Assembly (NCBI GenBank): GCA_021796435.1
Contig: JAJYXM010000016.1
Coordinates: forward strand, 310,625 to 374,624
DNA from: a bacterium
GTDB taxonomy: Bacteria; Patescibacteriota; Patescibacteriia; 2-12-FULL-60-25
Direction: 5' to 3'
DNA length: 64,000 bases
Shown: positions 28,432 to 48,839 of the stretch, piece after piece
How positions within the stretch are numbered: position 1 is the stretch's first letter
Layout of the letters: the number at the start of each line of letters is the position of its first letter
Position numbers and translations under genes: made by a program
The notes under the pieces: generated by a model
What the model was told of the DNA's origin: nothing
Database searches by the model: none
The model's input: only the letters and a program-made list of their open reading frames with translations

Positions 28432-29049
28432 TTAGAATTCCAGGTTGAGTTTCCGTGCTTCCTGCTTGAATTTCCCTTTGGCGCGGCGGAGCAGGGTACC
28501 GATGGTGCCGAGCGGTTTGCGCAACACATCCGAGATCTCGTTATAGTCCAGACCTTCGAGATATTTCAGGATCAGAACTTCGCGGTATTTATCGTCCATC
28601 TTGCCCAAGACGCGATGCAGGTTGGCGACAAGTTCGTGCGTCTCGGCGGTTTTCTTGATGTCGAGGTCTGATGCCAGGTTAAGGAACGCATCGTCTTCGA
28701 GTTCAGCTGATTGGGGACGTGCTTTGACTTTGCGGAAGTGACTCATCGTTTCGTTGTGCGCTATGCGGTAGATCCAGGACGAGAATTTGAGTTTGCGGTC
28801 AAAACCGTTGAGGTTGAGATAGGTCTTGAGGAAGATCTCCTGCAGGATATCCTCGGCGTCCTCTAAAGAGGCGCTGGAGATGCGTCGGATGTAGCGCAAA
28901 AGACGTTCCTCATAACGGCGCATCAAGGGGAGGAAATGCTCTTTATCCTGCAAAGCCAGGGCAACCAGCTCCGTGTCGCTCAGTTCGGAATAGTCCTGCA
29001 TAGGTACAACTCTAACATAAATACGTGAAAAATCACGTTTTTCTTTCAA
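28432..29049 (-). CDS. RNA polymerase sigma factor, ECF (sigma-70 region 2/4) family
   Basis: Region 2 (EDILQEIFLKTYLNLNGF...FSSWIYRIAHN) and region 4 (YREVLILKYLEGLDYNEISDVLRKPLGTIGTLLRRAK). The track start is TTG; an internal ATG (MQDYSEL) near 29001 is an alternative. Confidence 0.8.
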   Translation of the reverse strand: MKEKRDFSRIYVRVVPMQDYSELSDTELVALALQDKEHFLPLMRRYEERLLRYIRRISSASLEDAEDILQEIFLKTYLNLNGFDRKLKFSSWIYRIAHNETMSHFRKVKARPQSAELEDDAFLNLASDLDIKKTAETHELVANLHRVLGKMDDKYREVLILKYLEGLDYNEISDVLRKPLGTIGTLLRRAKGKFKQEARKLNLEF

Positions 29050-29135
29050 AATGCCCGTAAATAATGACTTGATTTAAATGTTTTTATTGGTTAATATCCA
29101 CCCACCTTCGCCGAAGCTGCGATCGGCAGGTCCAC

Positions 29136-29217
29136 GTTCCGGACGTTTAGCTTCACCCTGCGCAAAAGCTACGGGTGACAGGACGCCGAACGTAATCAGT
29201 TCAGGACGTTTAGCTCA
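29136..29217 (+). repeat. Duplicated tRNA-Val 5' end with flank (gttcCggacgtttagctTca at 29136-29155 versus gttcAggacgtttagctca at 29199-29217)
   Basis: About 19/20-nt direct repeat; the upstream copy is not followed by the rest of a tRNA. Confidence 0.6.
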
Positions 29218-29280
29218 GTTGGTTAGAGCGTTCGATTCACATTCGAAAGGTCGCAGGTTCGAATCCTGCAACGTCCACCA
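29204..29280 (+). tRNA. tRNA-Val (anticodon CAC), CCA encoded
   Basis: Hand-folded cloverleaf: acceptor ggacgtt/aacgtcc, D-stem gctc/gagc, anticodon stem ttcga/tcgaa with loop ttCACat, T-stem gcagg/cctgc with T-loop ttcgaat, then a-cca. Confidence 0.9.
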
Positions 29281-29499
29281 GGCAAGATGCACGGTCAAAA
29301 GCCGTGCGTTTTGATTTTAAGAAGCGCGGGTAAGAATTCAGTTGCAGGATGAGGACGGGAAGGGGGTCGGGGAAACGGGAGTTTCCCCTTGGCGGAAGTG
29401 TTGAAACCGCTGGGTTTCAAAGAGACCGGAGGTCGATGTGAGATTCCTGCAACGTCCACCAGCAAGATGCACGGTCAAAAGCCGTGCGTTTTGATTTTT
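29262..29499 (+). repeat. Direct repeat (about 57 nt, 2 differences) comprising the last about 19 nt of tRNA-Val plus its terminator, duplicated 181 nt downstream (29262-29318 and 29443-29499)
   Basis: aatcctgcaacgtccaccaggcaagatgcacggtcaaaagccgtgcgttttgatttt versus attcctgcaacgtccaccagcaagatgcacggtcaaaagccgtgcgttttgattttt. Confidence 0.7.
29287..29318 (+). terminator. Rho-independent terminator after tRNA-Val
   Basis: gcacgg-tcaaaag-ccgtgc followed by gttttgatttt. Confidence 0.7.
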
Positions 29500-29548
29500 G
29501 TCGTAAACGTTTAACGGACCGCGAGGGCGGTCCGTTGGGAGAGGGGGT

Positions 29549-30055
29549 TCACGGCGTCACGAAGAAGCCGTCTTTCTTGGGGTCGAAGCGCTTGACCGCG
29601 ACCTCGACTTTGGCGTCGGTCGTGCGGCGCAGGCGGTTGAGCTCTTTCTTGATCGCGGTCGCGAGCTTCTTGGCGTAGGTGGCGCGCTTCGCGTGTGTCC
29701 GTTCGGGCATGTCGAAAAGGAGTTCGACGATGACGGTGGCAAGCGGATACGGGTCAGTAGGCACGCTTGGATCGTGGGGGAAGGAGCAGGTGATGCCGTC
29801 GGGCGACAGCTTCCAGAATCTGGCCGTCACCTGGATGATCACCATCTCGAGAGCGTTGCGCCAGTCGTCTGGCATGTCGTGGTGCGAATGTTCCTTGGGT
29901 TTCGGCGCGTCAGATTCACCCTCGAACCAGGGCTGAACGTTATCGTCAACCTGTGGACCGTACATCACCGGCGTGTCCATAAGTTCCGCGAGCGAAGCCG
30001 GCGGTGCATGTTCAGGTTGGCGCGGAGAGATGTTTAAGCAGACGATGTGGGGCAT
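29549..30055 (-). CDS. Hypothetical protein, paralog A; possible tautomerase-superfamily member (mature N-terminal Pro)
   Basis: Start MPHIVCLNIS is preceded by GGAGG. Shares FPHDPSVPTDPYP and KELNRLRR blocks with paralog B. The track ORF carries a spurious 107-aa upstream extension. Confidence 0.4.
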   Translation of the reverse strand: MPHIVCLNISPRQPEHAPPASLAELMDTPVMYGPQVDDNVQPWFEGESDAPKPKEHSHHDMPDDWRNALEMVIIQVTARFWKLSPDGITCSFPHDPSVPTDPYPLATVIVELLFDMPERTHAKRATYAKKLATAIKKELNRLRRTTDAKVEVAVKRFDPKKDGFFVTP

Positions 30056-30125
30056 GAGTTCCTCCGGGAAAGGTACGCGGCGATTTAAATATGGTGCAGC
30101 GGATATGTCAAACGCCGATAGATGG

Positions 30126-30154
30126 GAAAGCCGCCCCGGTGAGAGAGGGCGGCT
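30126..30154 (-). repeat. 29-nt hairpin element gaaagccgccccggtgagagagggcggct (copy 1), downstream of paralog B
   Basis: Identical 29-mer also at 30652-30680. Has an 8-bp stem agccgccc/gggcggct. Confidence 0.6.
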
Positions 30155-30170
30155 GGGTGGAGGCGGGACG

Positions 30171-30575
30171 TCAGAGCGAGGAGCGGAATCCCTCGCCGGA
30201 AACGTTGCGGGCCGTGACGCTGACCCGGGAGCCGGTTCTCTGGCGCAATCTGTCCAGTTCCTTCTCCAGGATCCTTGCCAGCGAATCGCAGAGTGCGTGG
30301 CCGTGCTGGAGCTCGGATATGGATTCGAGGTTCTCGACGTAGACTTGAGCGACGGGGTAGGGGTCGCTTGGGACATCTGGGTCGTGCGGAAACGAGACTT
30401 GGATGTCTTCCGGTTTGACCTTAAAGAGATCGGCGACGGCCGTTATGATGGTGGGCCGGAGATCTTTGCGCCAACGCGGGAGCATGTGTTTCAGATCGCC
30501 CCATCCTATGTCGTTCTGGGTCCACTCATCGGTCGGCAGACGGGATGAAATGTTCCAACAGATGACGTGCGGCAT
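30171..30575 (-). CDS. Hypothetical protein, paralog B of 29549-30055
   Basis: Start MPHVICWNIS is preceded by GGAGG. Shares FPHDPDVPSDPYP and KELDRLRQR blocks with paralog A. Confidence 0.4.
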   Translation of the reverse strand: MPHVICWNISSRLPTDEWTQNDIGWGDLKHMLPRWRKDLRPTIITAVADLFKVKPEDIQVSFPHDPDVPSDPYPVAQVYVENLESISELQHGHALCDSLARILEKELDRLRQRTGSRVSVTARNVSGEGFRSSL

Positions 30576-30651
30576 GCGAAGCCTCCTGGTGAATGAACGT
30601 GGCGATTGAAGCATTTTGAGTTGAGCATGTCAATCGCTATGCGCTAGACGA

Positions 30652-30680
30652 GAAAGCCGCCCCGGTGAGAGAGGGCGGCT
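30652..30680 (-). repeat. 29-nt hairpin element (copy 2), downstream of kptA
   Basis: Exact repeat of 30126-30154; terminator-like position. Confidence 0.6.
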
Positions 30681-30713
30681 CGTGGGAGCGCGATGAGTCA
30701 GATGGTGGCGAAG

Positions 30714-31187
30714 TCAGTCGTCCACTTGGCTGTCGATCTGTAGGATGGTCTCCACGTGCTCGCGGGCATCAGGAGAAGCGAGCTCGCTACGGTGTTCATC
30801 AACCTCGACGTCGATGAAGCCGACTATGCCTATCATGAGTGCCTCATCCCAGGCTTCGGGTAATCCCGAGAACGAGAAGACCCAGCCGTCGATAGTACGG
30901 ATGGCCCCGCCCCACCGGTCAAGCGCAGGGTCACGACTTTGCCAGCTGGTACGATGCCCAGGATGAGCATGAAGACGAAGAGCTTTCTCGGCGGAAAGAT
31001 GCTTGTAGCGCTCGTCCTTTTCTGAAGAGGTTTTTCCGATCCGTTGGTGGATGAAAACTTCACCATCGGGGCGGAGGATGCAAAGCCATCCGCCTTTCCT
31101 ATGGCGATCTTTCGTCTCAAGGTGGGAATTGATGAGGTGCAGGAATAAGGTGACCGAATCGCGGATGTCTGCCTGTTCGGGCGTCAT
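30714..31187 (-). CDS. kptA: RNA 2'-phosphotransferase, KptA/Tpt1 family
   Basis: ERYKHLSAEKALRLHAHPGH aligns to the E. coli KptA region [23 protein letters not shown]. GGW and GLPEAW also match KptA (REGW, GLPFW). Start taken at the MTPEQ codon preceded by GGAGG; the track ORF has a 69-aa upstream extension. Confidence 0.55.
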   Translation of the reverse strand: MTPEQADIRDSVTLFLHLINSHLETKDRHRKGGWLCILRPDGEVFIHQRIGKTSSEKDERYKHLSAEKALRLHAHPGHRTSWQSRDPALDRWGGAIRTIDGWVFSFSGLPEAWDEALMIGIVGFIDVEVDEHRSELASPDAREHVETILQIDSQVDD

Positions 31188-31301
31188 GAGTGCCTCCAAG
31201 GTTCGTTTTGCTGCTTCATTCAAGCATATCAAATGGTAAAGGACAATTTTTAACCTTTGGTTAGTTTTGGTTTGGTGCAGAATGTGCAAGAATGTATCCA
31301 T

Positions 31302-36336: not shown

Positions 36337-38214
36337 ATGCAAAAAAATAGAGCGTTCCTCTTTTCATTTTTGAAAACTGCCACCGGACGGGTGCTGTTTT
36401 TCGCCCTCATAAGCGCCGTGGTCGTGACTCTCTTGCCGGTAGAAATCAGGGCACAGACTGACGTCGGGGTCAATAACGTCCAGCAGGTAGCGAATACGGC
36501 CGGCTTGGCTGGAGGGTCGGATTTGATAACCATCATCGGGAGGATAATCAACATCTTCTTAGGCTTCTTAGGGTTGGTGTTCTTGGTGTTGATGCTTTAC
36601 GCCGGATTCACCTGGATGACCGCGGCGGGTGATGCGGATAAGATCAAGAAAGCGCAGGGGACCATCCGTAATGCGATCATCGGTCTGGTCATCATAGCTT
36701 CGGCTTGGGCGATAACATCGTTCATCCTCGGCATTTTCGCAGGACAGGGTTTGGGCGGCATCGGTGGTGGAGGACCTAGCGGGCCGTTGGCGCCATTCTC
36801 TTCAGCGCCAGGTTCGGCTTGCTTGGGCAAGGGGATAATCGAGACGCATCTGCCGGACAGGAACTCTACCGGTATACCGAGGAATTCGCCGATTATCATA
36901 ACGTTCAAGGAGCCGATGAAGCCTGACACGATAATGAAGGGGTGGACGGATGCCACGAGCAATACCCAGATGGAATGGCCCTTGGAGGATAAGAACGTGC
37001 TCATCTATCGGACGGTGCAGGGTCAGGATGCGGCCATGGGATCGGACCAGATAAAGGTCAGATATACCAAGGATCTGAAGACGTTCGTCTTCAAACCGGC
37101 TGATTATTTGGGGAGCCCGACCGAGAAGATCGGCTATACCGTAGTTTTAAAAGGAAGCAAGAACGGTATCCTGAAGGCAGACGGTTCTCCTGCTCTGACT
37201 TGTTCACCGAACAATGAATATTCCTGGCAATTCGAGGTGTCGACAGTGCTTGATCTCACTCCGCCTTATGTGACTGCGGTCATCCCGCCGGCTGAAGGAC
37301 TATACGCGAGGAATATCATAGTGATGTTGAATTTCAATAAAGCCATGGATCCGACCGCGTCACAGGGTACGACGGCTGACGGTTTCCAGAATATCGAGAT
37401 TTTGGCTACGCCTAACGGGCAGACTGTAGGCATCCCGGTAACCGGAGAATTCAAGATCGTCAACCAGTACAGGACAGTCGAATTCGTGAGCGACGCGAAG
37501 TGCGGAACGAATTCATGCGGACGCGACGTCTATTGTTTGCCGGGCAATGCACAGATCCAAGTCAACGCCAAAGCTGGGACGTTGGATGGTCCAGGGCCGC
37601 AAGCCGTATTCACGACCAATGGTTATGACGGCTTGGTAAGCGTCGTCGGGAATTCTTTGGATGGCGACCACAACGACAAGGCGGAAGGTCCGCCGGGAGA
37701 TAATTATCAGTGGTCTTTCGGAACCTCGAATGACATCAAGCTATCACCGCCGGTGATCGTCAGCACGACGCCTGATTCAGACCCGAATACCGGTAAGAAT
37801 TCCAACGTATCATTGGACATGCCGATAACGGCGCTTTTCGATTCTTTCCTTCAGGCATCTACATTGAATTCGGATAACGTATACGTGGATGCCCATGGGA
37901 CTACCGAGCAACCGGATACTTTCTGGTGGACCGTCGGCATGAAGCTGGTCAAGAACGACGGGTCGGACATCGATACTACGACCGTACCGCCGGAAAAGCC
38001 GGAAGTCAGCGCGCTGACCATAGATCATCGGCCGTTCCAGCCGTCAGGAGTATTCCCGAACCTGAATTATTATGATCCATACATCACTTCCGGGGTGCAG
38101 GACGCTTATCAGAACTGTTTCGTACCGGCACGAAAATGCGGTGCAGGGAGCGGCGCCAATTGTTGCAAATTCCAACCCAACTCTGAAGTGTGCAAGAAAA
38201 TATTAAATCCATGA
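36337..38214 (+). CDS. Surface protein with signal peptide + TrbC/VirB2-pilin-like double-TM N-module, Gly linker and Ig-like domains
   Basis: The N-terminal 140 aa are about 55% identical to the N-terminus of the next gene. Hydrophobic helices IINIFLGFLGLVFLVLMLYAGFTWMTAAGD and NAIIGLVIIASAWAIT. TGA overlaps the ATG of the next gene (ATGA). Confidence 0.7.
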   Translation: MQKNRAFLFSFLKTATGRVLFFALISAVVVTLLPVEIRAQTDVGVNNVQQVANTAGLAGGSDLITIIGRIINIFLGFLGLVFLVLMLYAGFTWMTAAGDADKIKKAQGTIRNAIIGLVIIASAWAITSFILGIFAGQGLGGIGGGGPSGPLAPFSSAPGSACLGKGIIETHLPDRNSTGIPRNSPIIITFKEPMKPDTIMKGWTDATSNTQMEWPLEDKNVLIYRTVQGQDAAMGSDQIKVRYTKDLKTFVFKPADYLGSPTEKIGYTVVLKGSKNGILKADGSPALTCSPNNEYSWQFEVSTVLDLTPPYVTAVIPPAEGLYARNIIVMLNFNKAMDPTASQGTTADGFQNIEILATPNGQTVGIPVTGEFKIVNQYRTVEFVSDAKCGTNSCGRDVYCLPGNAQIQVNAKAGTLDGPGPQAVFTTNGYDGLVSVVGNSLDGDHNDKAEGPPGDNYQWSFGTSNDIKLSPPVIVSTTPDSDPNTGKNSNVSLDMPITALFDSFLQASTLNSDNVYVDAHGTTEQPDTFWWTVGMKLVKNDGSDIDTTTVPPEKPEVSALTIDHRPFQPSGVFPNLNYYDPYITSGVQDAYQNCFVPARKCGAGSGANCCKFQPNSEVCKKILNP

Positions 38215-41200
38215 AGGTACGTAACATTTTCGCCATAGCGTCTATCGGACTCGGCCTGGCGGCGGGTACGATGTTTCTGTCGGCCCACGCCGTACGAGCA
38301 CAGGTCGATACGGGGTTGCAGCAGGTGGGGCAGACGGTGAAGCTTTCAGGGACTGACCCGCGCACTATAGCCGCGAACATCATCAATATCGCGTTGGGCT
38401 TGGTGGGTATCGTGCTCGTCGGTCTGATACTTTACGGTGGCTTCCTGTACATGACGTCGGCCGGTGACAGCGCCAAAGTGGATAAAGCCAGGAAAGTCAT
38501 CACCAACGCCATAATCGGTCTGGTCATAGTGTTGTCGGCTTGGGCCATCACCAGATACGTAATAGATAAGTTGTTGCAGGCGACGCAGGAAGGCGGAGGC
38601 GTCGGTGGAGGTGCTAGCTCTGGTTATGTCGGAGGGTTCGGCAGCGGAACGGGCGGCAGCAGCTTCAGGATAGTCTCGATCACTCCGCAAGGCAGCCAGC
38701 CTGGGAAGCCAAGGAATACCGTAGTCAAGATCCTTTTGACCAAGGCCGTGGATGAAGCGACAGCTTCTGCCGTTACCGTGGTCAAAGATGGCGGTACGAC
38801 CGTCGGAGGCACTATTGCGGTTCAAGGGACGCTTGTGACGTTTACGCCGGTACAAGCCTGTCCTTCGCCGAACGAAACACGTAAATGTTTCGACGCCGAT
38901 TCGGCCTTTACGATTAAAGTCGGGACAAGCCTGAAATCAGCTCAAGGACAGCCGATCGCTTGCGGCGGTTTTGCACCAGCATGCGAAGCGCATTTCACTA
39001 CAGGCAATCTGGTCGACGTTTCGGGCCCGAACGTGTCTTTGACCTTCCCGACGGACGGCATGTCGATCCAGCAGAATTATTATTCGGATGTCTTGGCTCA
39101 TGCGACAGACGATAGCGGCGTCGCAATCGTGCAATTTTTGGATGGCGCCGATGAGATCGGCAGCGACGGACCGAGTTCGGCGGATACGCCACTAAGTTTC
39201 GATGCCAAGATTTTTTGGGATACGGCTGGAGCTGCTTTAGGCGTGCATACCTTGACCGCAAAGGCGTTGGATTTGGATACGAACACGACGCAAAGCCAGA
39301 GCGTTTCGGTCGTCGTACGCCCGGAACATTGTTTCAACGGTAAACAGGATCAGGATGAGACTGGCATAGACTGTGGTGGTGATCCGAACAGCACGGATTT
39401 CTGTGGCGTATGCAGCGGTGGTTCGTGTACCAGTAATAGCCAATGTTCTTCGGGTTTTTGCCAAGGCGGGGTGTGTATCGAGAAGCCTGTGATCAAGTCA
39501 GTTTCTCCGTTGAACGGCAAGCCGGGTACTTTCGTCTCCATCGCGGGTACTAATTTCGGAACTAATCCGGGTACGGTCGTTTTCTTAGGTGACCCGAACA
39601 ATCCAGCCGACGATAAAATCGCAGTCGCGCCACAAGCCTGTGTCAATGCAGGAAGCCAAACATGGAGCAATACGCAGGCGATAGTTTCTTTGCCGGACGG
39701 TGCAGCTTCAGGGCCGATAGAAATCAAGAATGCTTCCAGCTCGTTGACCGACAGGACGGATCAAGATCCTGGGCCGGCAGTCGCAGATTTCGTCGTGGAT
39801 AATACGGAACATCCTGGGCTTTGTGCTTTGGATCCAGCGTCCGATAGCGTTGGCAAAAACGTGAAAGCTATAGGACAGGGTTTTGGAAATTCGCAGGGCA
39901 AGGTCATATTCGGTTCCCTGGACCAGCAACTGGCGGGATCACCGTGGTCTGACGCTAACGTCACATTCAAGGTTCCGGTCGTCAACAACGGGCCGTATCA
40001 GGTCTGGGTCCAGACAGGCGCAGGCACAAGTAATCCGGCACAGTTCGTGGTGACGGAAAAGAGCCTCGAAGCGGCTCCTGAATTGGATAGCCTCGATCCG
40101 ACGCAAGGCCCATTGCAGCAATATGTGACGCTGTATGGCAGGAATTTCGGATATAACGTAGGAACGGTGATTTTTTCCGCACAGGATGGTACCGAGGCGA
40201 TCGGTGACACGAGTTTTCCGGCTGCTTGCAGCGCAGGTTTCTGGTTGGATGACACGATCGTAGTCAAAGTCCCTTCGGTCTTCAAGAACGGTCAGGGATT
40301 GATCGACGGCACCTATCAGGTCAGGGTAAAACGTTCCGATAATAAGGAATCGGCCTCGTTGCCTTTCAATGTCAATAAATCCTTACCTCTCAAGCCAGGT
40401 ATCTGTGCCATCAGTCCCGCAGTCGGACCCGTGGGAACGGACGTGAAGATCTACGGTGAACGTTTCGGCTTCGACAAACCGTTGGTGTCTTTCAGCACGA
40501 GCAAGCAGGCTTTGGTGCAATCCAATACGAACCAGGAGGTGCAGACTTCGGTCCCGAATAATTCGATCACCGGTCCGGTGACGGTCACGAGCAATGCCGT
40601 CATCTCTAATGGTTTCAATTTCCAGGTCAGGAATTGCAATGAAGCCCCTGAAATCTGCGGACCGGTCGATAAGTTCCAATGTTGCCAGACTGGGGAGTGT
40701 CGACCAGCGGGACAGTCTTGCGCCGTTGCACCGACCGAATCCGAATATGCCTGGCAACTTTCCACAGGACTGATTCCGTTGGCGCCATACGTCATCGAAG
40801 AATGCCGTCCGGACATCACTCCAGCGCCGACTCCTTCACCATCTCCATGGAGTGGTAGAGCTGGTGGGGACCAGGCGCCGACCGATGCGGCGATAACGAT
40901 GCGTTTTTCGCAGCAGCTCGAAATGAGCACGGTCACCAAACAAGCTTTCCATATATACGCCTGCAAAGGCGCCTCGGCCGATCCTTGCGATACGAAGGAA
41001 GCAATCCAGGATTTCACCATGCACTTGACCCACGAGAACAATCAGCAGGATTTGGTGACGTTGAATCCGAGCGCGAAGTTCGCGACCAATACCACATATC
41101 TGGTGACCATCTCGACAGACATAAAGGGCGCAGGCGAGACAGGGGCCAACATGATCGAGAACAAGGCCTGCGGCAAAGGCCAGAACAATGAGACTTATGG

Positions 41201-44200
41201 CTATTGTTTCAGGTTCAAGACGCGTGCTTCGGAAGAGCCGTCACAAGTCGGTTCGGTCGGCGTCGTTCCATCCAGCTATACCTTCAAGGAGACCGGAGTC
41301 TACATCGGCTACGAAGCCGTACCGACGGATGCACAAGATAAATGCATCGTCCTGGATTGCCAGCAGTTCAACTGGAATTGGCATGCCGGAGATACGCGCG
41401 GGTCGATCACCAACATGACCGGCGGACAATTCAATTACGGCCTGTGCAACCAGCAAGGGACGGGAAATTTCGAGACGGGTAACGTACCGGTGGACATACT
41501 TTCCGATCTGGCCGGCACCAGCCTCACGGGACAAGGCGAGATGTTCGTGAATTTCGTGCCGCCCCGCGTCGAGGAATATGCGCCGAAGTGCGACGAGGCG
41601 TGCAGCAATGCTTTGATCTGGGCCAGGTTCTCGGCCAAGCTCGATGCAGCTTCGGCCTTGACCCCGAACAACATCAAATTGCAGAAGTGTTATAACGAAA
41701 ATTGTTTCGAATCGGAATTGGGCCAGCCTATCGCCATCACGATGAACCTTAAGGACGATACGACGATCGAGATTTCGCATGCACCACTCGAAGCCGGAGG
41801 ATTCTATCGTCTTTTCCTGCGTGGCGGACCTAACGCCATAAATCCTGCCACACTGGAGAATAACGGAATCCAGGGCCTGAACGGCGTGCCGATGACGGGA
41901 ACCAACCATCCGGAAGGGTTTTTCTGGAAATTCCGTGTGTTGCAAGGGACCGCAGCTTTCTGCAAGGCGGAACGCGTAGACCTCAAACCTTTGGAGAAAT
42001 ACGAGACGAACGTCGATGCACGTCAGCTTTTCGAGGCGACGCCGTATAGCCCGCCGGATAAGTGCAGCTCTGATGGCCAGCAGTTGGTGAACCAGGGGGA
42101 TACACAATGGGCATCAGGCGATATCACGGTCGCGGATTTCTACAGACAGGCACAGTCTCTAATCAAGTCCGATAAGACGAAGCTGCCTGCAGGCTGTTCG
42201 TCAAAATGCTTAGCCATGGGAGCTGGCGGGTTGTTCGGCAAGGTCGCGATGTGCGGTAACGGCATCATAGAGACGACTGACGCGAATTATTGCGTAGGTG
42301 GAAAGACTCCCCGAGGTAGCGCATGTAAGCTCATGCCGGCTGGCGCGAAAGCAGGCGAGGAATGTGAGCCGACGATAGACGGTTTGGATAAGTGCGATGT
42401 CGCTACATGCTTGTTCCGTTCCGTGGCAGCTGTCAATCAGGGAGGCACTTGTGGTGACGGTACGGTGCAGGCCGCCGCTGGTGAAGCGTGTGATTACGGC
42501 CCGACATGCGTAGGCGGCAGTACAGCGACCAGCTCTACGCCTGTGCCTGAATATGCTTCATGTCCGGATGCGACGACCAAACAAGCTTGTGAAAACGCCG
42601 GAGGAGTATGCGCGATGCATGATTACCGCGGATGCTCGGCGAATTGTCGGCATACCGGAGCCAAGTCGGGCAAGACGACTTGCGGTAACGGAGATTTCCA
42701 CGGCGACGGAAAAGATTGCGATGACGGCAACGTGGCTAACGGCGATGGATGCAGTTCGGATTGTCTACACGAGCCGTCACAGCCATCTACCGTTTTAGCG
42801 GCGGTGTGCGGTAACGGTATTTTGGAAAAAGGCGAGACATGCGAAGCCACTATGGTGAACGGGAGCCCGGTTTTCGCTCCGGGATGCGACAGCAGTTCGT
42901 GTCTGCATACAGGTACCTTATCCTGCATGCCGGGTCAGAACCTCAGTTGCTGCGGTAATGCGGTGCTTGATCCAGGAGAGGACTGCGACGACGGCAACAC
43001 CGCCTCAAAAGACGGATGCAGCTCGAGTTGTCTGTTGGAAGGTTCATCAGCCTATTATTCCGCCGTACCTTCCGGTATCGCGCCGAGTTTCTGCGGCAAC
43101 GGTTATCTGGAGAAGGGCGAACAGTGCGAGGTGGGCGCTTCATCCGACAGTATCGCTAAATTGGTTTACGCAGGCCTGCCGAAGGACGCTGCCTTGGCAT
43201 GGTCGCCGGTCTTGAACAAGAGTTTCGCTAACATCCAAAGCGGCATCGACCCCATACAGTTGGCCAAAATAATCGGCGAAAAAGAACCCGATCCAGCGAC
43301 CGGAAGATCATCTTCCGAATTGAGCGCGGTGATGCTGGAACAGACGGGTAAAGCGACGTATGGCCTGCAGTGCGGCTATAACGACGAAGCGAATTGCACT
43401 CCGGATGACCTGTCTAACCCGCGCGGTCTGGATGATTTCGGTTGCTGCCGACTGCGTCCGATCGTGGCCAAGGCTTATCCGCCACCGCCGCCATTCGAGG
43501 CTTGCCGTAATGTCCAGATCCAGATCGAATTCAATCAGGCGATGGATACGGTATCGGTGACCAATAATTTCGAGATTTCTGAAGGTCCTGATGCAGCGAA
43601 CAAATGTCCGGACGGTACGCAGGAAGTCGTGTTGAACACTGATAATCAGCCGGGTTTCTGGAATTTCCTGAAACGCATTTGGCGCTCGATCGTCGCTTGG
43701 ATCTTTAAGCAGCCCGCCATAGCCGAGAAGTGGTGCGTAGGCAAAGTCACGGGACAACTCACCGCAGCCGATCAGCAATCGCAGGCGACTAAATTCATCT
43801 ACACTTTGGATCATGCCCTGGATGCCGGAAAGCTTTATCGTATCAGGTTGAAAGGCGACGATGATCTGACCGACAACGCTGACAAGAACGCACGGCATGG
43901 CATCAAGACGGCGGCTGGCGTGGTGCATGATGGCGACATCACATGGAACTTCAAGACGGGCAACCAAATCTGCGCCTTGAACACCGTCACGATATACGAT
44001 GTGACGCAGGATCCGCCGGACGAGAAGCATCCTTTCCTATACGTGAACAAAGGCAACAAGTCTGAAGAGAGGCATTTCGAGGCAGAGGCGCAATCACTGC
44101 AGAACGGCACGGCGATACCGCTTTCGACGACAGCTGAATACCAGTGGGATTGGCACGTCTGGACGACGAGCGATCCGGATTTGGTTAATTATAGCCCGAA

Positions 44201-47200
44201 TTATCCGATCCAACCGCCGACCTACAAAGGACATTTCGTTTCGGTGGTCGAGGGTAGCGCGCAAAAGAACGGGCACGCGATACTGACGGCCGGCATCAAA
44301 GTCGTCCACGACGAAGTTAACGTCCCGTCATCCACGGGTTCGGTAATACAAGGCGTGGCACATGTCGCGGTCTTGGCTTGCGAGAACCCATGGCCATCGC
44401 TGCAGACTTCTCCGTTCAGCGACACCAAGACTTGGTTGAACGACCGTTGGGCCGATCTGCCTGATTCAAGGCCTAACATCTTCATCGGCAACGATCCGTA
44501 TATCGGCAAACCGGTCTTCTACAATTTCTCCACCATGTATTGTCGCGATGCGGGCGTGGAGCATGACCAGACCGACGATCTGCCGGAACTCGTGATAAAC
44601 CAGGTGCCGCGAACCGCAGTGGACAAAGCAAACGGCATCTTGCGTCAATACCTTTTGACCTTCAAGGACGATGCCTTGAAGAAGGATGGTATCGGTATCC
44701 GTGTCGCCGAGAATCCGCAGCATCTGTCGGCTTTGGAGTGGTACTACTCGAAGGGCTTCGCAGGCAAACCGAAAGTGCTTAGCGTAGACGGATATCCGGC
44801 GGTCCAAGACGGCAATACGTTATATGTCGATGCCGCCAACCAACCCGAAACGAACGAATCGATATATTCGAACATCTATGTCTTCTCCTTGAATCCGGAT
44901 GCTCAGCAGGTGACGCAGGACATATTCAAACAGCTGGTCCAATATCTGGCTTTCAACGTCAACATCGTCGGTCAGAGCAATACCTGCCATATAGCAACGG
45001 GCGCGAACCAATACACGAATACCGACATCTACACCGACAGTCAGGGAGTACCGAAACGCTGCACCGCAGATTGGGAGTGTGCACCTTTGGATTCCTCGAG
45101 CAATCTGTTCTGCGATTCCAATAAGGCCAAGATGGCACGTGACACGCAGCGCATGGCTGATTTCCAGGCCATCAACAAACGGTTGCTGGAGACGCGAGAT
45201 GCGCAGGGCAGATATCTGCAGCTCCAGACCGGAACGTACCTTAAAGGATTGACGACCTCATTGTGGCCGTCATGGACGGATGAATTCGGGAAGGCCTTGG
45301 GCACCATGCCGGTTGATCCGATCGATAGGTTCTTGACTTGTGGAGAGTGCACTGACGGGAGTGTGTGCCAGACGGATAAGGACTGCGGGGAAAACGGCAA
45401 GTGCATGGGTAAACGTTTCGAGAACGGCGAATGGGTGGACGCACCGGATCTGGATCCGCAGACCTGTTGGAACTCTAAAGCGTTCACCTATACCTGTCCG
45501 GCTTATAAGACCGGCAATCCGTTCTCGGTCTCGCGTCTGTACCAGTACCGCTCCTTGGCCGGAGGCACACAGTATGAATTGGCTTCGGAGTTCGAAGTCC
45601 AACCAATGACATTGAACCAGAAAGACTGGTGGTACCCGGCATTGCCGAGCACCATGTACCAGTGCGTGAATCCAGGAGCGGTCGGCAGATATTGCAATGA
45701 CGGCAACGGCAATCCATCAGATGCCCTATGCCGTATATGCGCGAATCCAGCCAGCTGCAAACAGTGCAAGACGAGCGGTGCGGATTGCACGACTAACGCG
45801 GCAGTCTGTGCTGCGCCGGATACGTGCGTGGATGTAGCTTCGATCCCCGCGTCCTGTCGGCCTTTCGGGGGTACGTTCAAATATGCCGGAGTCTGCACCA
45901 ATCAAGCTTATGCCGAGAACGGGACTTGCGGAGACAAGGTCCTCAACAATAACGAACTATGTGAATTAGGCGACACAAAGTCCGAAACCTGTACCGTGAA
46001 CGGTAAGCCGGGACATCGCCAGCTGGCATGTAATGCGTGCACCAAGTTCGATGTGGATCCGCAGAGACCGCAGTGCGTGGAGGATTCGGTTTGTGGCAAT
46101 GGCCGTATAGATAAGGTTTGCGCCGGAAGTACGGTTTCGTGTTTAAGTAATGCTGACTGTACGGGAGGCGTGCTCTGCATCAATAATGAAGCATGCGATG
46201 ATGGGGTGGATAACGGTAAATACGGTCATTGCAACGCGACGTGTCAGGGCTATGCGGGGTTCTGTGGAGATGGTCAGCTTTCGCCAGGTGAAGTCTGTGA
46301 TAAGGGTGTGAACAATGGCCAGTGGAGCAACGCTTATAATGCAGCTACCTGTGCGACGAACTGCAAAGGCGTGGGTCCGTATTGCGGCGATGAGGAGATC
46401 AACGGCTCGGAAGAGTGTGACGGCGGTGCCCAGACGACGCAGGCTGCTTTCTGCATAAACGCCAACCCACCGACGCTTTGTGATACGAATGCCGATTGCC
46501 CGCAAGGTAAATTATGCGCGGGTAAAGCGGTCGCTCGTCTAGACGCAAAATCTTCCCGGACGTTAGCGTTCGTCCGTGGGAAGTTGGGTGAGGCTTGGTT
46601 GAATTATGTGTTGGTACCGGCGGTCCAGGCTGCACCTCCGCCACCCCAGCAACAGAATAGTTCCAACATAAATTCGGTCGTCTACACTAAGTTAAATATC
46701 TGGACCACTAACACCATCAAACCCGGTAAACTCAGCGGCGGGTTGCAGTTCATTCCTGCTATCCCTGGCGGTGGAGGCGGAGGACAACAGACGACGCAAT
46801 ATGTCGATGTCAACGGCAATAAGATAAACGTCACAGCGTTCAATTCATGCGAGGGTGTGTATGTCGTGGATTCAAACGGAATCAAGCGCGAGACGCAGCA
46901 CGTGAGGAACTGCAATGCTCCTGGCGCCACCAACTCCTGTAAGTGGAGCGACTGGACCGGTTGTGTCCCGGTCGGCATCTGTGGCGACGGCATCAAGGAC
47001 CTTAACGAAGCTTGCGATAATGGAGCAAATAACGGCGATACAAAAGCGTGCACCTCGCAGTGCAAGGTCAATACTTGCGGCGACGGTCTGTTGAATGTCG
47101 GGGTAGAGGAATGCGATTCAGGTGCGCAGAACGGCCAAGTGACCTGTAACGCCGACTATGATTCGTCCTGCCTATCGTGCAGCAATCTGTGCAAGTTCAT

Positions 47201-48839
47201 GGCTTCGGCTGGAGGATATTGCGGCGACGGGGTAAAGAACGGTCCGGAACAATGCGACGGCACTCAAGGCCTGACTGTAGGGAATTCTCCGGTGACATGT
47301 TCGATGTTGGGCTATGATTACGGAGTGAACGCGAACAATAATGCGACTTGTGCTTCGGATTGCAATTACGGCGGTTGCAAGCGTTGTTCGGACGAGCCAG
47401 GCGACGGAGTGATAGAGGGAAGGGTGTATGATGCGGTTTTCCAGCAGGTCGTCCCGAACGCACGTGTCAGCCTGATGTATAAAGGTGCGAAAGTGGAAGA
47501 GGCTTTCACGGATCAGGACGGCAAATATAAATTCGTCGACCTAAATAAAAATTCCGCCTGTACGAGCTACAGAATCGTCATCGACATGTATCAGGATAAC
47601 GTATGTACAGGCCAAGACCATGCTGGTTTCAATTGCTTCAGCGTCGGTGTCAGTCCATGGGTCTATCCGTATGCTCTGGATGAAGGGGCGAATGGAGGAT
47701 ATTTCTCTTTCACCACAGACCTTTTCAGCTTCAGTACCTATAAGAGCGTGTTGAACGGTGAAGATTTCGACTCGGTGCCTCATATCGACATATTCCCGCG
47801 TCCTGAAAGAGGCCGTGCATATATGGCTATGACATGGAAGCCGACCGGAGGGACCATAGGTTACAAGGCTCATACGATATTGCCTGATGTAAGCGCCTAT
47901 AAGGTCGTAGATTTTGATGGCGGAGATACGACCATGTCGTGCGATTACGCTACGCGTCCGACTGCCGACGGAAAGGCTTGTGCACGAGATATAAACTGGC
48001 GTGCCTGGGGCTCGTGGCAGATCGATACCTTGCCATATACCCGAATGATATGTCTAAGGCGTGTAGGTGAATTGACTTCTGGATGGTCGAGCTCGGCTTC
48101 GAACGGCTGTCCATTCGAAGGCGTGACGAGCTGTCTGCAGAGGGCGGGTAAGACACTCAGCAGCTGCGGGTGTACTGTCGATGCAGATGGCAAGAAAGTG
48201 ACGTGCACAAGCACAAACTCGGCCTGTTTGGCCTGTGGGGCTGACGTGAGCCATTCGTGCAATAAGGATGCCCACTTCGCTGACTGTGCTAACCCTGTGA
48301 CATATGGACCGATCACCGTTTTGACTAACTATACTGCCCTGATGAACCAGAGCGAGGACATCAAGTTCTACTTCAGCGCCGGTCCGGGCGATGCGGCATC
48401 GTTCAAATCAGCGATGTCGAATACCTCAAAGGGCTATAAGGCTTATACGGCCATAACTGATTTGTCTGGCGCATCGGAGCTGCAAGTGATCGAAAAGCCA
48501 TCAGATTCGGGTTGGTTCTGGGAAATCGCTCACTTACAGCCGAAGCAACAAAAGGTCGTCAAGATAGATAAATTAGCCGGTAGCGACAATGACATGGCTA
48601 CGACAATGCAGAATACTCCGACGTCCAATAAACCGAGTTATCTTGATGGTTGGGGAGCTTGGTCGCTGTTCTTCCAAGCCGGTGGGAAAAATTATTGCGT
48701 AAGCACGACCGATAACACGAAACTTCATCCGACCATCGGCCCATGCTATTGGGATACTCCTAAACAGATTTGTGCACAGACGGCGGGCTATCACTGTGCA
48801 GACGTGGATCCCACGACTTATTACAAATATAACTGGTGA
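38211..48839 (+). CDS. Giant (about 3,542 aa) cell-surface protein: pilin-like N-module, Ig-like domains, IPT/TIG domains, about 25 cysteine-rich CGDG/CGNG...CDDGN repeats, carboxypeptidase-regulatory-like domain, Cys/Trp-rich C-terminal domain
   Basis: Single uninterrupted ORF. IPT/TIG signatures (PVIKSVSPLNGKPGTFVSIAGTNFG; PELDSLDPTQGPLQQYVTLYGRNFG; PGICAISPAVGPVGTDVKIYGERFG). Repeats such as CGNGILEKGETCE, CDDGNVANGDGCSSDC and CGDGLLNVGVEECDSG, like the Myxococcus cysteine-rich repeat. CarbopepD-reg-like GRVYDAVFQQVVPNARVSL...TDQDGKYKF. Confidence 0.8.
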   Translation: MKVRNIFAIASIGLGLAAGTMFLSAHAVRAQVDTGLQQVGQTVKLSGTDPRTIAANIINIALGLVGIVLVGLILYGGFLYMTSAGDSAKVDKARKVITNAIIGLVIVLSAWAITRYVIDKLLQATQEGGGVGGGASSGYVGGFGSGTGGSSFRIVSITPQGSQPGKPRNTVVKILLTKAVDEATASAVTVVKDGGTTVGGTIAVQGTLVTFTPVQACPSPNETRKCFDADSAFTIKVGTSLKSAQGQPIACGGFAPACEAHFTTGNLVDVSGPNVSLTFPTDGMSIQQNYYSDVLAHATDDSGVAIVQFLDGADEIGSDGPSSADTPLSFDAKIFWDTAGAALGVHTLTAKALDLDTNTTQSQSVSVVVRPEHCFNGKQDQDETGIDCGGDPNSTDFCGVCSGGSCTSNSQCSSGFCQGGVCIEKPVIKSVSPLNGKPGTFVSIAGTNFGTNPGTVVFLGDPNNPADDKIAVAPQACVNAGSQTWSNTQAIVSLPDGAASGPIEIKNASSSLTDRTDQDPGPAVADFVVDNTEHPGLCALDPASDSVGKNVKAIGQGFGNSQGKVIFGSLDQQLAGSPWSDANVTFKVPVVNNGPYQVWVQTGAGTSNPAQFVVTEKSLEAAPELDSLDPTQGPLQQYVTLYGRNFGYNVGTVIFSAQDGTEAIGDTSFPAACSAGFWLDDTIVVKVPSVFKNGQGLIDGTYQVRVKRSDNKESASLPFNVNKSLPLKPGICAISPAVGPVGTDVKIYGERFGFDKPLVSFSTSKQALVQSNTNQEVQTSVPNNSITGPVTVTSNAVISNGFNFQVRNCNEAPEICGPVDKFQCCQTGECRPAGQSCAVAPTESEYAWQLSTGLIPLAPYVIEECRPDITPAPTPSPSPWSGRAGGDQAPTDAAITMRFSQQLEMSTVTKQAFHIYACKGASADPCDTKEAIQDFTMHLTHENNQQDLVTLNPSAKFATNTTYLVTISTDIKGAGETGANMIENKACGKGQNNETYGYCFRFKTRASEEPSQVGSVGVVPSSYTFKETGVYIGYEAVPTDAQDKCIVLDCQQFNWNWHAGDTRGSITNMTGGQFNYGLCNQQGTGNFETGNVPVDILSDLAGTSLTGQGEMFVNFVPPRVEEYAPKCDEACSNALIWARFSAKLDAASALTPNNIKLQKCYNENCFESELGQPIAITMNLKDDTTIEISHAPLEAGGFYRLFLRGGPNAINPATLENNGIQGLNGVPMTGTNHPEGFFWKFRVLQGTAAFCKAERVDLKPLEKYETNVDARQLFEATPYSPPDKCSSDGQQLVNQGDTQWASGDITVADFYRQAQSLIKSDKTKLPAGCSSKCLAMGAGGLFGKVAMCGNGIIETTDANYCVGGKTPRGSACKLMPAGAKAGEECEPTIDGLDKCDVATCLFRSVAAVNQGGTCGDGTVQAAAGEACDYGPTCVGGSTATSSTPVPEYASCPDATTKQACENAGGVCAMHDYRGCSANCRHTGAKSGKTTCGNGDFHGDGKDCDDGNVANGDGCSSDCLHEPSQPSTVLAAVCGNGILEKGETCEATMVNGSPVFAPGCDSSSCLHTGTLSCMPGQNLSCCGNAVLDPGEDCDDGNTASKDGCSSSCLLEGSSAYYSAVPSGIAPSFCGNGYLEKGEQCEVGASSDSIAKLVYAGLPKDAALAWSPVLNKSFANIQSGIDPIQLAKIIGEKEPDPATGRSSSELSAVMLEQTGKATYGLQCGYNDEANCTPDDLSNPRGLDDFGCCRLRPIVAKAYPPPPPFEACRNVQIQIEFNQAMDTVSVTNNFEISEGPDAANKCPDGTQEVVLNTDNQPGFWNFLKRIWRSIVAWIFKQPAIAEKWCVGKVTGQLTAADQQSQATKFIYTLDHALDAGKLYRIRLKGDDDLTDNADKNARHGIKTAAGVVHDGDITWNFKTGNQICALNTVTIYDVTQDPPDEKHPFLYVNKGNKSEERHFEAEAQSLQNGTAIPLSTTAEYQWDWHVWTTSDPDLVNYSPNYPIQPPTYKGHFVSVVEGSAQKNGHAILTAGIKVVHDEVNVPSSTGSVIQGVAHVAVLACENPWPSLQTSPFSDTKTWLNDRWADLPDSRPNIFIGNDPYIGKPVFYNFSTMYCRDAGVEHDQTDDLPELVINQVPRTAVDKANGILRQYLLTFKDDALKKDGIGIRVAENPQHLSALEWYYSKGFAGKPKVLSVDGYPAVQDGNTLYVDAANQPETNESIYSNIYVFSLNPDAQQVTQDIFKQLVQYLAFNVNIVGQSNTCHIATGANQYTNTDIYTDSQGVPKRCTADWECAPLDSSSNLFCDSNKAKMARDTQRMADFQAINKRLLETRDAQGRYLQLQTGTYLKGLTTSLWPSWTDEFGKALGTMPVDPIDRFLTCGECTDGSVCQTDKDCGENGKCMGKRFENGEWVDAPDLDPQTCWNSKAFTYTCPAYKTGNPFSVSRLYQYRSLAGGTQYELASEFEVQPMTLNQKDWWYPALPSTMYQCVNPGAVGRYCNDGNGNPSDALCRICANPASCKQCKTSGADCTTNAAVCAAPDTCVDVASIPASCRPFGGTFKYAGVCTNQAYAENGTCGDKVLNNNELCELGDTKSETCTVNGKPGHRQLACNACTKFDVDPQRPQCVEDSVCGNGRIDKVCAGSTVSCLSNADCTGGVLCINNEACDDGVDNGKYGHCNATCQGYAGFCGDGQLSPGEVCDKGVNNGQWSNAYNAATCATNCKGVGPYCGDEEINGSEECDGGAQTTQAAFCINANPPTLCDTNADCPQGKLCAGKAVARLDAKSSRTLAFVRGKLGEAWLNYVLVPAVQAAPPPPQQQNSSNINSVVYTKLNIWTTNTIKPGKLSGGLQFIPAIPGGGGGGQQTTQYVDVNGNKINVTAFNSCEGVYVVDSNGIKRETQHVRNCNAPGATNSCKWSDWTGCVPVGICGDGIKDLNEACDNGANNGDTKACTSQCKVNTCGDGLLNVGVEECDSGAQNGQVTCNADYDSSCLSCSNLCKFMASAGGYCGDGVKNGPEQCDGTQGLTVGNSPVTCSMLGYDYGVNANNNATCASDCNYGGCKRCSDEPGDGVIEGRVYDAVFQQVVPNARVSLMYKGAKVEEAFTDQDGKYKFVDLNKNSACTSYRIVIDMYQDNVCTGQDHAGFNCFSVGVSPWVYPYALDEGANGGYFSFTTDLFSFSTYKSVLNGEDFDSVPHIDIFPRPERGRAYMAMTWKPTGGTIGYKAHTILPDVSAYKVVDFDGGDTTMSCDYATRPTADGKACARDINWRAWGSWQIDTLPYTRMICLRRVGELTSGWSSSASNGCPFEGVTSCLQRAGKTLSSCGCTVDADGKKVTCTSTNSACLACGADVSHSCNKDAHFADCANPVTYGPITVLTNYTALMNQSEDIKFYFSAGPGDAASFKSAMSNTSKGYKAYTAITDLSGASELQVIEKPSDSGWFWEIAHLQPKQQKVVKIDKLAGSDNDMATTMQNTPTSNKPSYLDGWGAWSLFFQAGGKNYCVSTTDNTKLHPTIGPCYWDTPKQICAQTAGYHCADVDPTTYYKYNW

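Follow-up and report, generated by a model that had tools for sequence, protein, structure and literature searches.

Does a transfer RNA (tRNA) gene bracketed by partial copies of its own two ends record the arrival of an integrative element, or could such copies arise in other ways? This question is raised by the tRNA-Val(CAC) gene of the window analyzed here, a 64-kb stretch of contig JAJYXM010000016.1 from a patescibacterial genome of 1.52 Mb, in which a copy of the tRNA 5′ end lies upstream of the gene and a copy of its 3′ end, together with a second terminator, lies downstream (Table 1). Displaced tRNA fragments are routinely read as marks left by integrases, and a first-pass annotation, made from the letters of the window, had accordingly proposed the scar of an integrase-mediated insertion or a hotspot for integration. 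The same signature appears here at a scale of 60–180 nucleotides (nt), with no element or recombinase in view. Our analysis suggests that the two partial copies arose separately and that neither serves as an active attachment site; no integrative element is demonstrated at the locus, which is mostly ordinary.

Table 1. Features of the tRNA-Val locus and the adjoining lineage-specific DNA (window coordinates).
Feature	Position	Strand	Basis or remark
ECF-type sigma factor (ECF, extracytoplasmic function)	28432–29001	minus	homologues in Patescibacteria
Putative promoter of the tRNA unit, TTGATT-17-nt spacer-TAATAT	29069–29097	+	read from the sequence
5′ copy, GTTCC + GGACGTTTAGCT: tRNA positions −5 to +12, 5′ strand of the leader hairpin	29136–29152	+	repeat search
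51-nt leader insert: apical hairpin TCACCC...GGGTGA, GCCGAACGT (imperfect inverse complement of tRNA positions 3–11), short tail	29153–29203	+	fold
tRNA-Val(CAC), intact, sole tRNA gene of the window	29204–29280	+	ARAGORN; Rfam RF00005, 76.6 bits
3′ repeat copy 1: tRNA positions 58–77, extra G, intrinsic terminator (stem 29283–29313, T run)	29261–29318	+	repeat search
123-nt spacer, G-rich, two perfect 8-bp hairpins (29369–29388, 29401–29420)	29319–29441	+	between the 3′ repeat copies
3′ repeat copy 2: displaced tRNA 3′ fragment (positions 58–77, T-loop A→T) and second, identical terminator	29442–29498	+	repeat search, terminator scan
Paralog A, 168 amino acids, begins MPHIVC...	29549–30055	minus	no family match; in both strains
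T1 terminator repeat, copy 1	30116–30162		29-nt core identical to copy 2; repeat search
Paralog B, 134 amino acids	30171–30575	minus	missing in the second strain, L046
T1 terminator repeat, copy 2	30642–30688		repeat search
Gene C, 157–158 amino acids	30714–31190	minus	named kptA in the first-pass annotation

The 3′ repeat was found much as first described, as a unit of about 57 nt present twice with two differences. The unit begins at tRNA position 58, within the T loop, and takes in the CCA end and all of the intrinsic terminator; its copies are 58 and 57 nt long, start 181/180 nt apart, and differ by one T-loop substitution (A29263 vs. T29444) and a 1-nt indel (the extra G29281). The terminator portions, 29282–29318 and 29462–29498, are 100% identical over 37 nt, and the preceding portions, 29261–29281 and 29442–29462, agree at 20/21 positions (95%), or at 19/20 when only the tRNA part of the second copy is counted (29442–29461, positions 58–77). 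The 37-mer occurs twice in the window, and two copies were seen in 0/100 shuffles; the 17-mer of the tRNA 3′ end, TCCTGCAACGTCCACCA, likewise has 2 occurrences in the 64 kb, and no shuffle contained two. The window holds no third copy, including one that would bound the three accessory genes downstream. The terminator scan called 29463–29493 as a hairpin with a 13-bp stem, a 5-nt loop and the T-run tail ATTTTTGTCG, and the hairpin of the first copy (29283–29313) is identical. Judged by their sequence, both are putative intrinsic (Rho-independent) terminators, each combining a G+C-rich stem-loop with a T run and placed after a gene of the same strand.

The second copy lies downstream of the tRNA on the same strand, its first base falls in the T loop (gene position 58), and hairpins mark both limits of the duplicated unit, the left one being in the T loop and the right one where the T run of the terminator stops. 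Upstream of this copy, unrelated bases replace the 5′ strand of the T stem. Without that strand, and with all of the tRNA's 5′ part absent as well, the second copy cannot make a tRNA; its contribution is at most that of a second terminator, and it probably has no function. After a patch of 8 unrelated nucleotides, the hexamer AGGTCG (tRNA positions 44–49) recurs at 29429–29434 with a consistent offset, a match that is weakly significant.

Both hairpins noticed earlier in the segment between the copies were recovered, and no credible gene or open reading frame (ORF) was found in its 123 nt. No other copy of this spacer was present in the window or in the related loci compared for it, and neither the leader nor the downstream flank resembles it. 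Its fold in isolation is of ordinary stability (z = −0.4). The idea that it might be the decayed 5′ part of a second tRNA was rejected, as its alignment to tRNA positions 1–57 was no better than those of shuffles, and homology with the DNA after the second copy was rejected as well (p = 0.31), despite a common G-rich motif at the same offset. An inverted 10-mer in the spacer, GTTGCAGGAT, is at chance level (23 such 9–10-mers seen vs. ~20 expected when all flanks were scanned), so that as part of a direct-inverted-direct structure it is a weak hint at most. Within 29050–29560, Rfam searches at gathering thresholds and at E ≤ 10 returned only the tRNA and noise, with no other family, and the same was true of 8 related loci. 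The segment 29281–29560 had no match among phage or plasmid records, the two hairpin motifs were absent from viral contigs, and an integron attC or CRISPR-like reading of the duplicated hairpins was dismissed for want of matching motifs and associated genes.

Part of what was found is what an integrated element would leave. An intact tRNA gene (tDNA) and a cognate end fragment share one replicon, and configuration and orientation are those used by the Islander method, with the 3′ fragment downstream, the 5′ fragment upstream and both on the plus strand. The T loop, in which the 3′ fragment begins (position 58, and position 60 in the related locus L027), is a known site of crossover in tDNA (PMC4383910; PMC3146451), the sublocations described being the anticodon loop, the T loop and the T/acceptor junction (PMC4383910). 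However, the enclosed interval is 123 nt for the 3′ copies and 51 nt for the 5′ copies, compared with the 2–200 kb accepted for islands, and it contains no integrase. No recombinase domain was found in the flanking genes, and Pfam scans detected no recombinase, transposase or phage domain in ~33 large ORFs scanned across the window; nor is there a base-composition anomaly at the tRNA-Val locus. Neither a cognate element nor a pair of occupied and empty sites appeared in the collections searched or in the ~40 related loci.

No element of the kind that the first-pass annotation had proposed to look for, carrying the attachment-like sequence, was found in the collections searched, and a 25-mer of the terminator had 0 matches in the viral, genome and metagenome collections. 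Five viral contigs matching the 17-mer were considered as candidate phage attachment sites (attP) and rejected as chance, since they held no tRNA and no extended similarity. A metagenome scan for two tRNA 3′ ends 140–170 nt apart returned only an unrelated tandem repeat (L042), and a literature search on Patescibacteria, integrases and tRNA islands found nothing relevant. Of the proposed insertion scar or hotspot, the geometry, the T-loop start and the variable downstream DNA stand, whereas the integrase, an interval of suitable length and a cognate element are all missing.

The 5′ copy, GTTCCGGACGTTTAGCT at 29136–29152, matches 29199–29215 at 16/17 positions, 63 nt apart; the upstream copy reported at 29136–29155 is real. 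Taken alone the match is weak (BLAST E 0.1–0.3 in 64 kb), and it is its recurrence at −61 or −63 in five other lineages that shows it not to be chance. The window and five further Uhrbacteria-like lineages (L001, L002/L003/L004, L018, L054–57 and L058) carry a copy of tRNA positions 1–13 at one of these two offsets, and the module is absent from L015, L005–7, L049, L050–53 and ~25 more loci, the remaining representatives. Every version follows one plan over 61–63 nt between the promoter and the mature tRNA 5′ end: the 13-nt copy, an apical hairpin, a segment near GCTAAACGT (the complement of tRNA positions 3–11), and a short, often T-rich tail. In the minimum-energy folds of all six distinct versions the copy pairs with the 3′ part of the insert, and the fold of the window module has z = −2.8. 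The inserts of the window and L001 are ~66% identical, as counted by eye on the alignment, and their consensus fold retains pairs although both sides have changed. Within the L002 group, four lineages have the same first 31 nt of the insert, although L054 and L002 are only 80% identical overall and the alignment of L018 with L002 covers just 169 nt.

Presence and absence of this module are precise. Across 3.5 kb, L049 is 93% identical to L002, and what separates the two here is exactly 48 nt plus one 13-nt repeat; L001 and L015 differ in the same way. No copy of the module exists elsewhere in the loci compared or in the window, including upstream of their 10 other tRNA genes. The first-pass annotation had named a shared duplicated arrangement in relatives, without variable insertions, as an argument against an attachment site. 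Relatives do have the same arrangement and spacing with nothing variable inside, and the fragment ends at tRNA position 12–13, in the D stem, which is not a known crossover site; for these reasons the 5′ copy is not an attachment site.

The module lies downstream of the likely promoter and is thus expected to be part of the pre-tRNA leader. That promoter scores 8/12, just below the 9/12 threshold of the promoter scan and hence unlisted by it; putative tRNA-Val promoters of relatives, for example TTGATT-17-TAAGCT in L002/L005 and TTGCCA-17-TATATT in L001/L015, appear homologous to it. We interpret the 5′ copy as the 5′ strand of a 61–63-nt hairpin module, which would form part of the pre-tRNA transcript and be cut away by ribonuclease P (RNase P). 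The module predates the species, and its gains or losses are exact, with the 13-nt direct repeats as their limits. It resembles leaders removed by RNase P in its position between promoter and mature 5′ end, but the leader is ~100 nt long here, compared with ~10–20 nt in most relatives, and differs further in that a copy of the tRNA 5′ end paired with its own complement could compete with the acceptor and D stems. When the whole precursor is folded in silico, pairing between the upstream copy and the 3′ strand of the acceptor stem is possible as well, so in the model the module could compete with normal tRNA folding. To our knowledge, no leader carrying a tRNA 5′-end copy paired with its complement has been described, and only the leader hairpin, among the parts of the locus, may be called novel to some degree; an effect on the folding of the pre-tRNA or on its processing by RNase P would make it a new type of tRNA leader.

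Two observations on relatives concern the same region. In L002 (5895–5925) and L005 the spacer and −10 region of the tRNA-Val promoter, CGTTTAGCTAAGCTGTCGG, resembles tRNA positions 4–19 and, from this likeness, may be an older, degraded 5′ copy. In L022 (3146–3236), ARAGORN calls a 91-nt "tRNA-Ala(agc)" immediately upstream of tRNA-Val, probably a false call or an odd tRNA-like leader.

The locus was compared with the sigma-factor neighborhoods of related genomes and with 29 species-representative loci holding the same tRNA; the loci sharing it belong to Candidatus Uhrbacteria and other Patescibacteria. The 77-nt tRNA-Val(CAC) is 100% identical in every related locus that holds the whole gene, and across the 29 species-level representative genomes (L013–L041) this identity coexists with unrelated flanking genes. 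In the two closest sister genomes, L001, the sigma factor of which is 91% identical to that of the window, and L015, the entire promoter–leader–tRNA–terminator module is inverted relative to both flanking genes: in blastn alignments the flanks align on the minus strand, and window 29141–29319 aligns on the plus strand (with L001 2555–2730 and L015 7509–7585). The leader module moved along with the tRNA through this inversion, the right end of the inverted segment (29319) coincides with the end of the first repeat copy, and in both genomes the tRNA promoter has the nucleotidyl transferase gene as its immediate neighbor. Window 29319–31250, comprising the spacer, the second copy, two paralogs and gene C, has no counterpart in these sister species, and the DNA downstream of the tRNA is therefore variable, as had been suspected. 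The more distant L002 and L005 keep the tRNA orientation of the window with other genes after the tRNA, and the gene content between tRNA-Val and the signal peptidase gene varies lineage by lineage. The terminators of L001, L015 and L005 are mutually homologous, and that of the window is unrelated to them.

A copy of the tRNA 3′ end of at least 12 nt was found within 600-nt flanks of ~35 loci only in the window (+165) and in L027 (+145). In L027 the second copy, which lies ~145 nt downstream, aligns with the tRNA from position 60 onward and takes in a degraded terminator; in the following 3 kb the ORF list showed no plausible integrase-sized ORF, no family-library scan having been made, and an apparent degenerate copy of tRNA positions 48–59 in the L027 spacer was discarded as not significant (p = 0.37). 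No second 3′ fragment was detected further out in ~40 related tRNA-Val loci, within the DNA compared. L037 carries a tandem duplication of the terminator module.

Other small structures occur downstream of tRNA-Val in relatives. L013, L019, L020, L024, L033, L037 and L039 have a ~110-nt module in the order CGTAAAAA, hairpin, TTTTTACGTG, inner hairpin, inverted terminator-arm copy, TCACGTGGCRCAGCC, which has no Rfam match and is present as two tandem copies in L037. An extra hairpin, TCGCGT-NNN-ACGCGA, stands between the CCA end and the terminator in L058 and L032, and a different small hairpin lies between the tRNA 3′ end and the terminator in L040.

The DNA beyond the second copy shows rearrangement at a finer scale. 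The tandem paralogs noted there are real (33% identity, E 7e-24) and old, their third codon positions being saturated, and paralog B is flanked by the 47-nt T1 repeat. The 29-nt repeated element of the first-pass annotation exists as the identical core of T1, and its nature is that of a duplicated terminator of the paralog units: each unit consists of T1, promoter, ribosome-binding site and gene, and on the minus strand the first T1 copy lies downstream of paralog B and upstream of the promoter of paralog A. The tRNA-end repeat and T1 are the only two near-perfect non-coding direct repeats in the 64 kb, both within 29261–30688, in a lineage-specific slot of 2 kb that has the second 3′ copy at its edge. 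A second strain, L046 (1–3587; sample SRR13189623; 98.7–99.2% identical), lacks ~30176–30641, a 466-nt deletion that removes paralog B and one T1 copy and has its junction inside the T1 repeat, indicating that the short direct repeats of the slot are active rearrangement substrates at the strain level. With its inversion, strain-level deletion, differing gene content and repeats, the locus is a small hotspot of structural change. The description of the downstream genes as accessory cargo holds insofar as the DNA is lineage-specific, but the genes lie outside the repeats, not between them.

Given these observations, our best reading, a tentative one that falls just short of being probable, is that the 3′ copy arose by local, recombinase-independent duplication in an unstable slot linked to the tRNA. 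A species-specific duplication of the segment from T loop to terminator would have been placed 181 nt downstream, and the likely route would be template switching during replication, or else illegitimate recombination, with the T arm and the terminator as the hairpin-forming DNA involved. The setting is a small slot prone to rearrangement, beside a highly structured and highly transcribed gene. Quasipalindrome-associated template switching makes small duplications at hairpin-forming sequences in bacteria. The scale of the event, the hairpin end points, the neighboring inversion and deletion, and the direct-complement-direct layout of the 5′ module all favor local rearrangement, and small-scale duplications recur at tRNA-Val in other lineages (L027, L037). 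The likeness to slippage or template-switch duplications extends to the size of 60–180 nt, the hairpin end points, the nearby inversion and deletion with short repeats, and the direct-inverted-direct 5′ module, while it fails in that the spacer does not derive from adjacent sequence and the junction microhomology is minimal (GA).

Several points weigh against a local duplication. Two independent lineages have their left boundary within the T loop (position 58 in the window, 60 in L027), where tDNA-targeting recombinases cross over, and the resumption of AGGTCG after the 8-nt patch, weakly significant as it is, looks less like a clean duplication junction than like an attP arm. A simple tandem duplication predicts a head-to-tail A-B-A-B order, whereas A-B-A is observed, with only A recurring, and the spacer has no recognizable source, being similar neither to the tRNA 5′ part nor to the leader or the downstream flank. 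The identical first 31 nt of the leader insert across genomes that are at most 80% identical point to either constraint or transfer, neither of which would follow from a passive scar. The closest available relatives differ by too many events for the order of steps to be reconstructed, and the examination for recombinases covered 64 kb of the 1.52-Mb genome.

The main rival, possible but less likely than local duplication, is a decayed integrative element: an element with a replacement tRNA 3′ end and terminator in its attP would have integrated at the T loop by means of a site-specific recombinase, the first copy being attL and the second a displaced attR, and later deletions would have left 123 nt. 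Decayed elements that retain attL and attR but no genes form a recognized class, the cis-mobilizable elements (CIMEs) (PMC5704250), and the locus resembles them in its two att-like direct repeats without recombination genes between. The described CIMEs sit in tandem with related functional elements, however, and here neither a related element nor a gene remnant was found. With islands integrated in tRNA and transfer-messenger RNA genes the locus shares an intact tRNA gene, a directly repeated 3′ end behind it that has the same orientation and starts in the T loop, and lineage-specific neighboring DNA. Directly upstream of the second copy, a block of difference from the tRNA gives way to partial resemblance (AGGTCG), a pattern also seen upstream of displaced fragments in the ssrA islands of Dehalococcoides (PMC3146451), and L027 carries an independent fragment with nearly the same left boundary. 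Islander rejects intervals shorter than 2 kb (PMC4383910), and the locus further departs from the islands in having no integrase, a repeat that continues 37 nt past the tRNA, accessory genes outside the repeats, and no cognate element among the sequences searched.

Other evidence bears on such an element in both directions. Identity blocks between attP and the bacterial site attB are reported to measure 58–182 bp for pSAM2, SLP1 and HP1, which counts in its favor. Against it, an interval of 123 nt, and of ~145 nt in L027, would mean that an element decayed almost completely on two occasions and that both att copies survived on each. No integrase or gene remnant is left in the interval or, here, in the window. 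The identity moreover includes a terminator found nowhere else, related loci show no second 3′ fragment further out within the compared DNA, and the 5′ copy would stay unexplained.

For the 5′ module, a separate possibility, compatible with any reading of the 3′ copy but rather improbable, is a miniature non-autonomous insertion element that targets and duplicates the first 13 nt of tRNA-Val. The short length, the precise presence and absence at 93% identity and the flanking 13-nt direct repeats, which look like a target duplication, recall miniature inverted-repeat transposable elements, and the identity of the first 31 nt in four lineages that are at most 80% identical, together with the patchy distribution in both clades, would suit mobility. 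Nevertheless, the module has no terminal inverted repeats, occupies one site per genome and has no dispersed copies in the loci searched, upstream of the 10 other tRNA genes included; its direct repeat is unusually long and begins exactly at tRNA +1, and the divergence between the window and L001 is about that of neutral orthologous DNA. Recurrent precise loss by slippage between the 13-nt repeats is a simpler account of its patchiness.

It is more doubtful still that the second 3′ copy serves a function, either with 29353–29498 as a small tRNA-derived, tRNA-like RNA, or with its terminator as a back-up stop insulating the convergent paralogs. The candidate RNA would have an acceptor-like stem (GGACG/CGUCC), an ACCA end, three hairpins and its own terminator copy. 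Its 109-nt part, 29353–29461, is predicted to form a closed multibranch fold with z = −2.9, with 1/200 shuffles as stable, although the end points were picked after seeing the fold, which inflates this value, and the spacer alone, as given above, is unremarkable. One spacer hairpin has a GNRA-type loop (GGGA), the 57-nt unit differs at only two positions, and the repeat is apparently present in both strains. On the other hand, a GGACG 5-mer within 100 nt is expected by chance in ~1/10 cases, the T arm is destroyed, the scan found no promoter-like site, Rfam gave no match, and no other genome searched has a homologue. A broader speculation, to which we give about as little credence, is that the tRNA-Val(CAC) gene of Uhrbacteria-like Patescibacteria is the specific target of tiny self-mimicking modules, a 5′ one of 61–63 nt that copies tRNA positions 1–13 and bears their complement and a 3′ one that copies the stretch from T loop to terminator; these could be a new kind of miniature mobile insertion regenerating the interrupted gene end, or cis-regulatory decoy and anti-decoy elements for pre-tRNA folding or processing, with 29353–29498 again as a tRNA-like RNA.

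The contigs of two independent samples in Logan end at 29311 and start at 29462 and 29469, the breaks expected of a k = 31 assembly graph in which the 37-mer occurs twice with different flanks, indicating that the repeat is not an artefact of a single assembly and is probably present in two strains. A mis-assembled repeat region as the source of the second copy can hence be set aside as very improbable, for although the genome is metagenomic and short contigs break at this locus, these contig ends fit a genuine double 37-mer, and the copies can be told apart by their two differing positions and their unique flanks.

The locus offers a caution for island finders and for the annotation of reduced Patescibacteria genomes. 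It also documents small-scale change around one tRNA, including an inversion, a strain-level deletion and recurrent duplications of the gene ends, in a group with very few known mobile elements.

The genes around the slot are housekeeping genes. On the sigma-factor side lie EPSP synthase (recognized by synteny with L002), an ABC ATPase, PrmC and the sigma factor itself, the homologues of which came from Patescibacteria in the homologue search; on the other side lie a nucleotidyl transferase, a signal peptidase and HisRS (called on the identical contig L043). Further out in the window, family scans identified GyrB, FtsW, FtsA, FtsZ, ThyX and pyruvate kinase.

Within the slot, paralog A had no Pfam, NCBIfam or PHROG match, and the sole match of paralog B among 5.8 billion proteins was itself. 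Both begin with MPH(I/V)(V/I)C and share SFPHDPxVPxDPYP, and a word-indexed search found no homologue outside the genome; they may represent a fast-evolving or lineage-restricted family. Gene C had been named kptA, an assignment that neither profile nor fold supports: it has no Pfam, NCBIfam or PHROG match even at E ≤ 10, and its fold neighbors are not Tpt1. It has more than 1000 homologues of 150–170 amino acids, no Pfam model, and the conserved motif WGGAIR...FSFSGLPE.WDEAL. The single-sequence AlphaFold model was unusable (predicted local distance difference test, pLDDT, 41), and the alignment-based model (pLDDT 96) was used instead; its best PDB fold matches by Foldseek, EfgA, HbpS, ORFY (DUF336) and Ybr137w, were weak (E ~6e-3, TM score 0.4–0.6), and its profile had no PDB sequence match. 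A homologue of gene C was found in an unrelated gene context. Beyond the slot, window 36337–48839 encodes a 625-amino-acid protein with a T4SS-pilin domain followed by an ORF of 3549 amino acids, and these two share a 54-nt segment with 74% identity (36663–36716 and 38498–38551).

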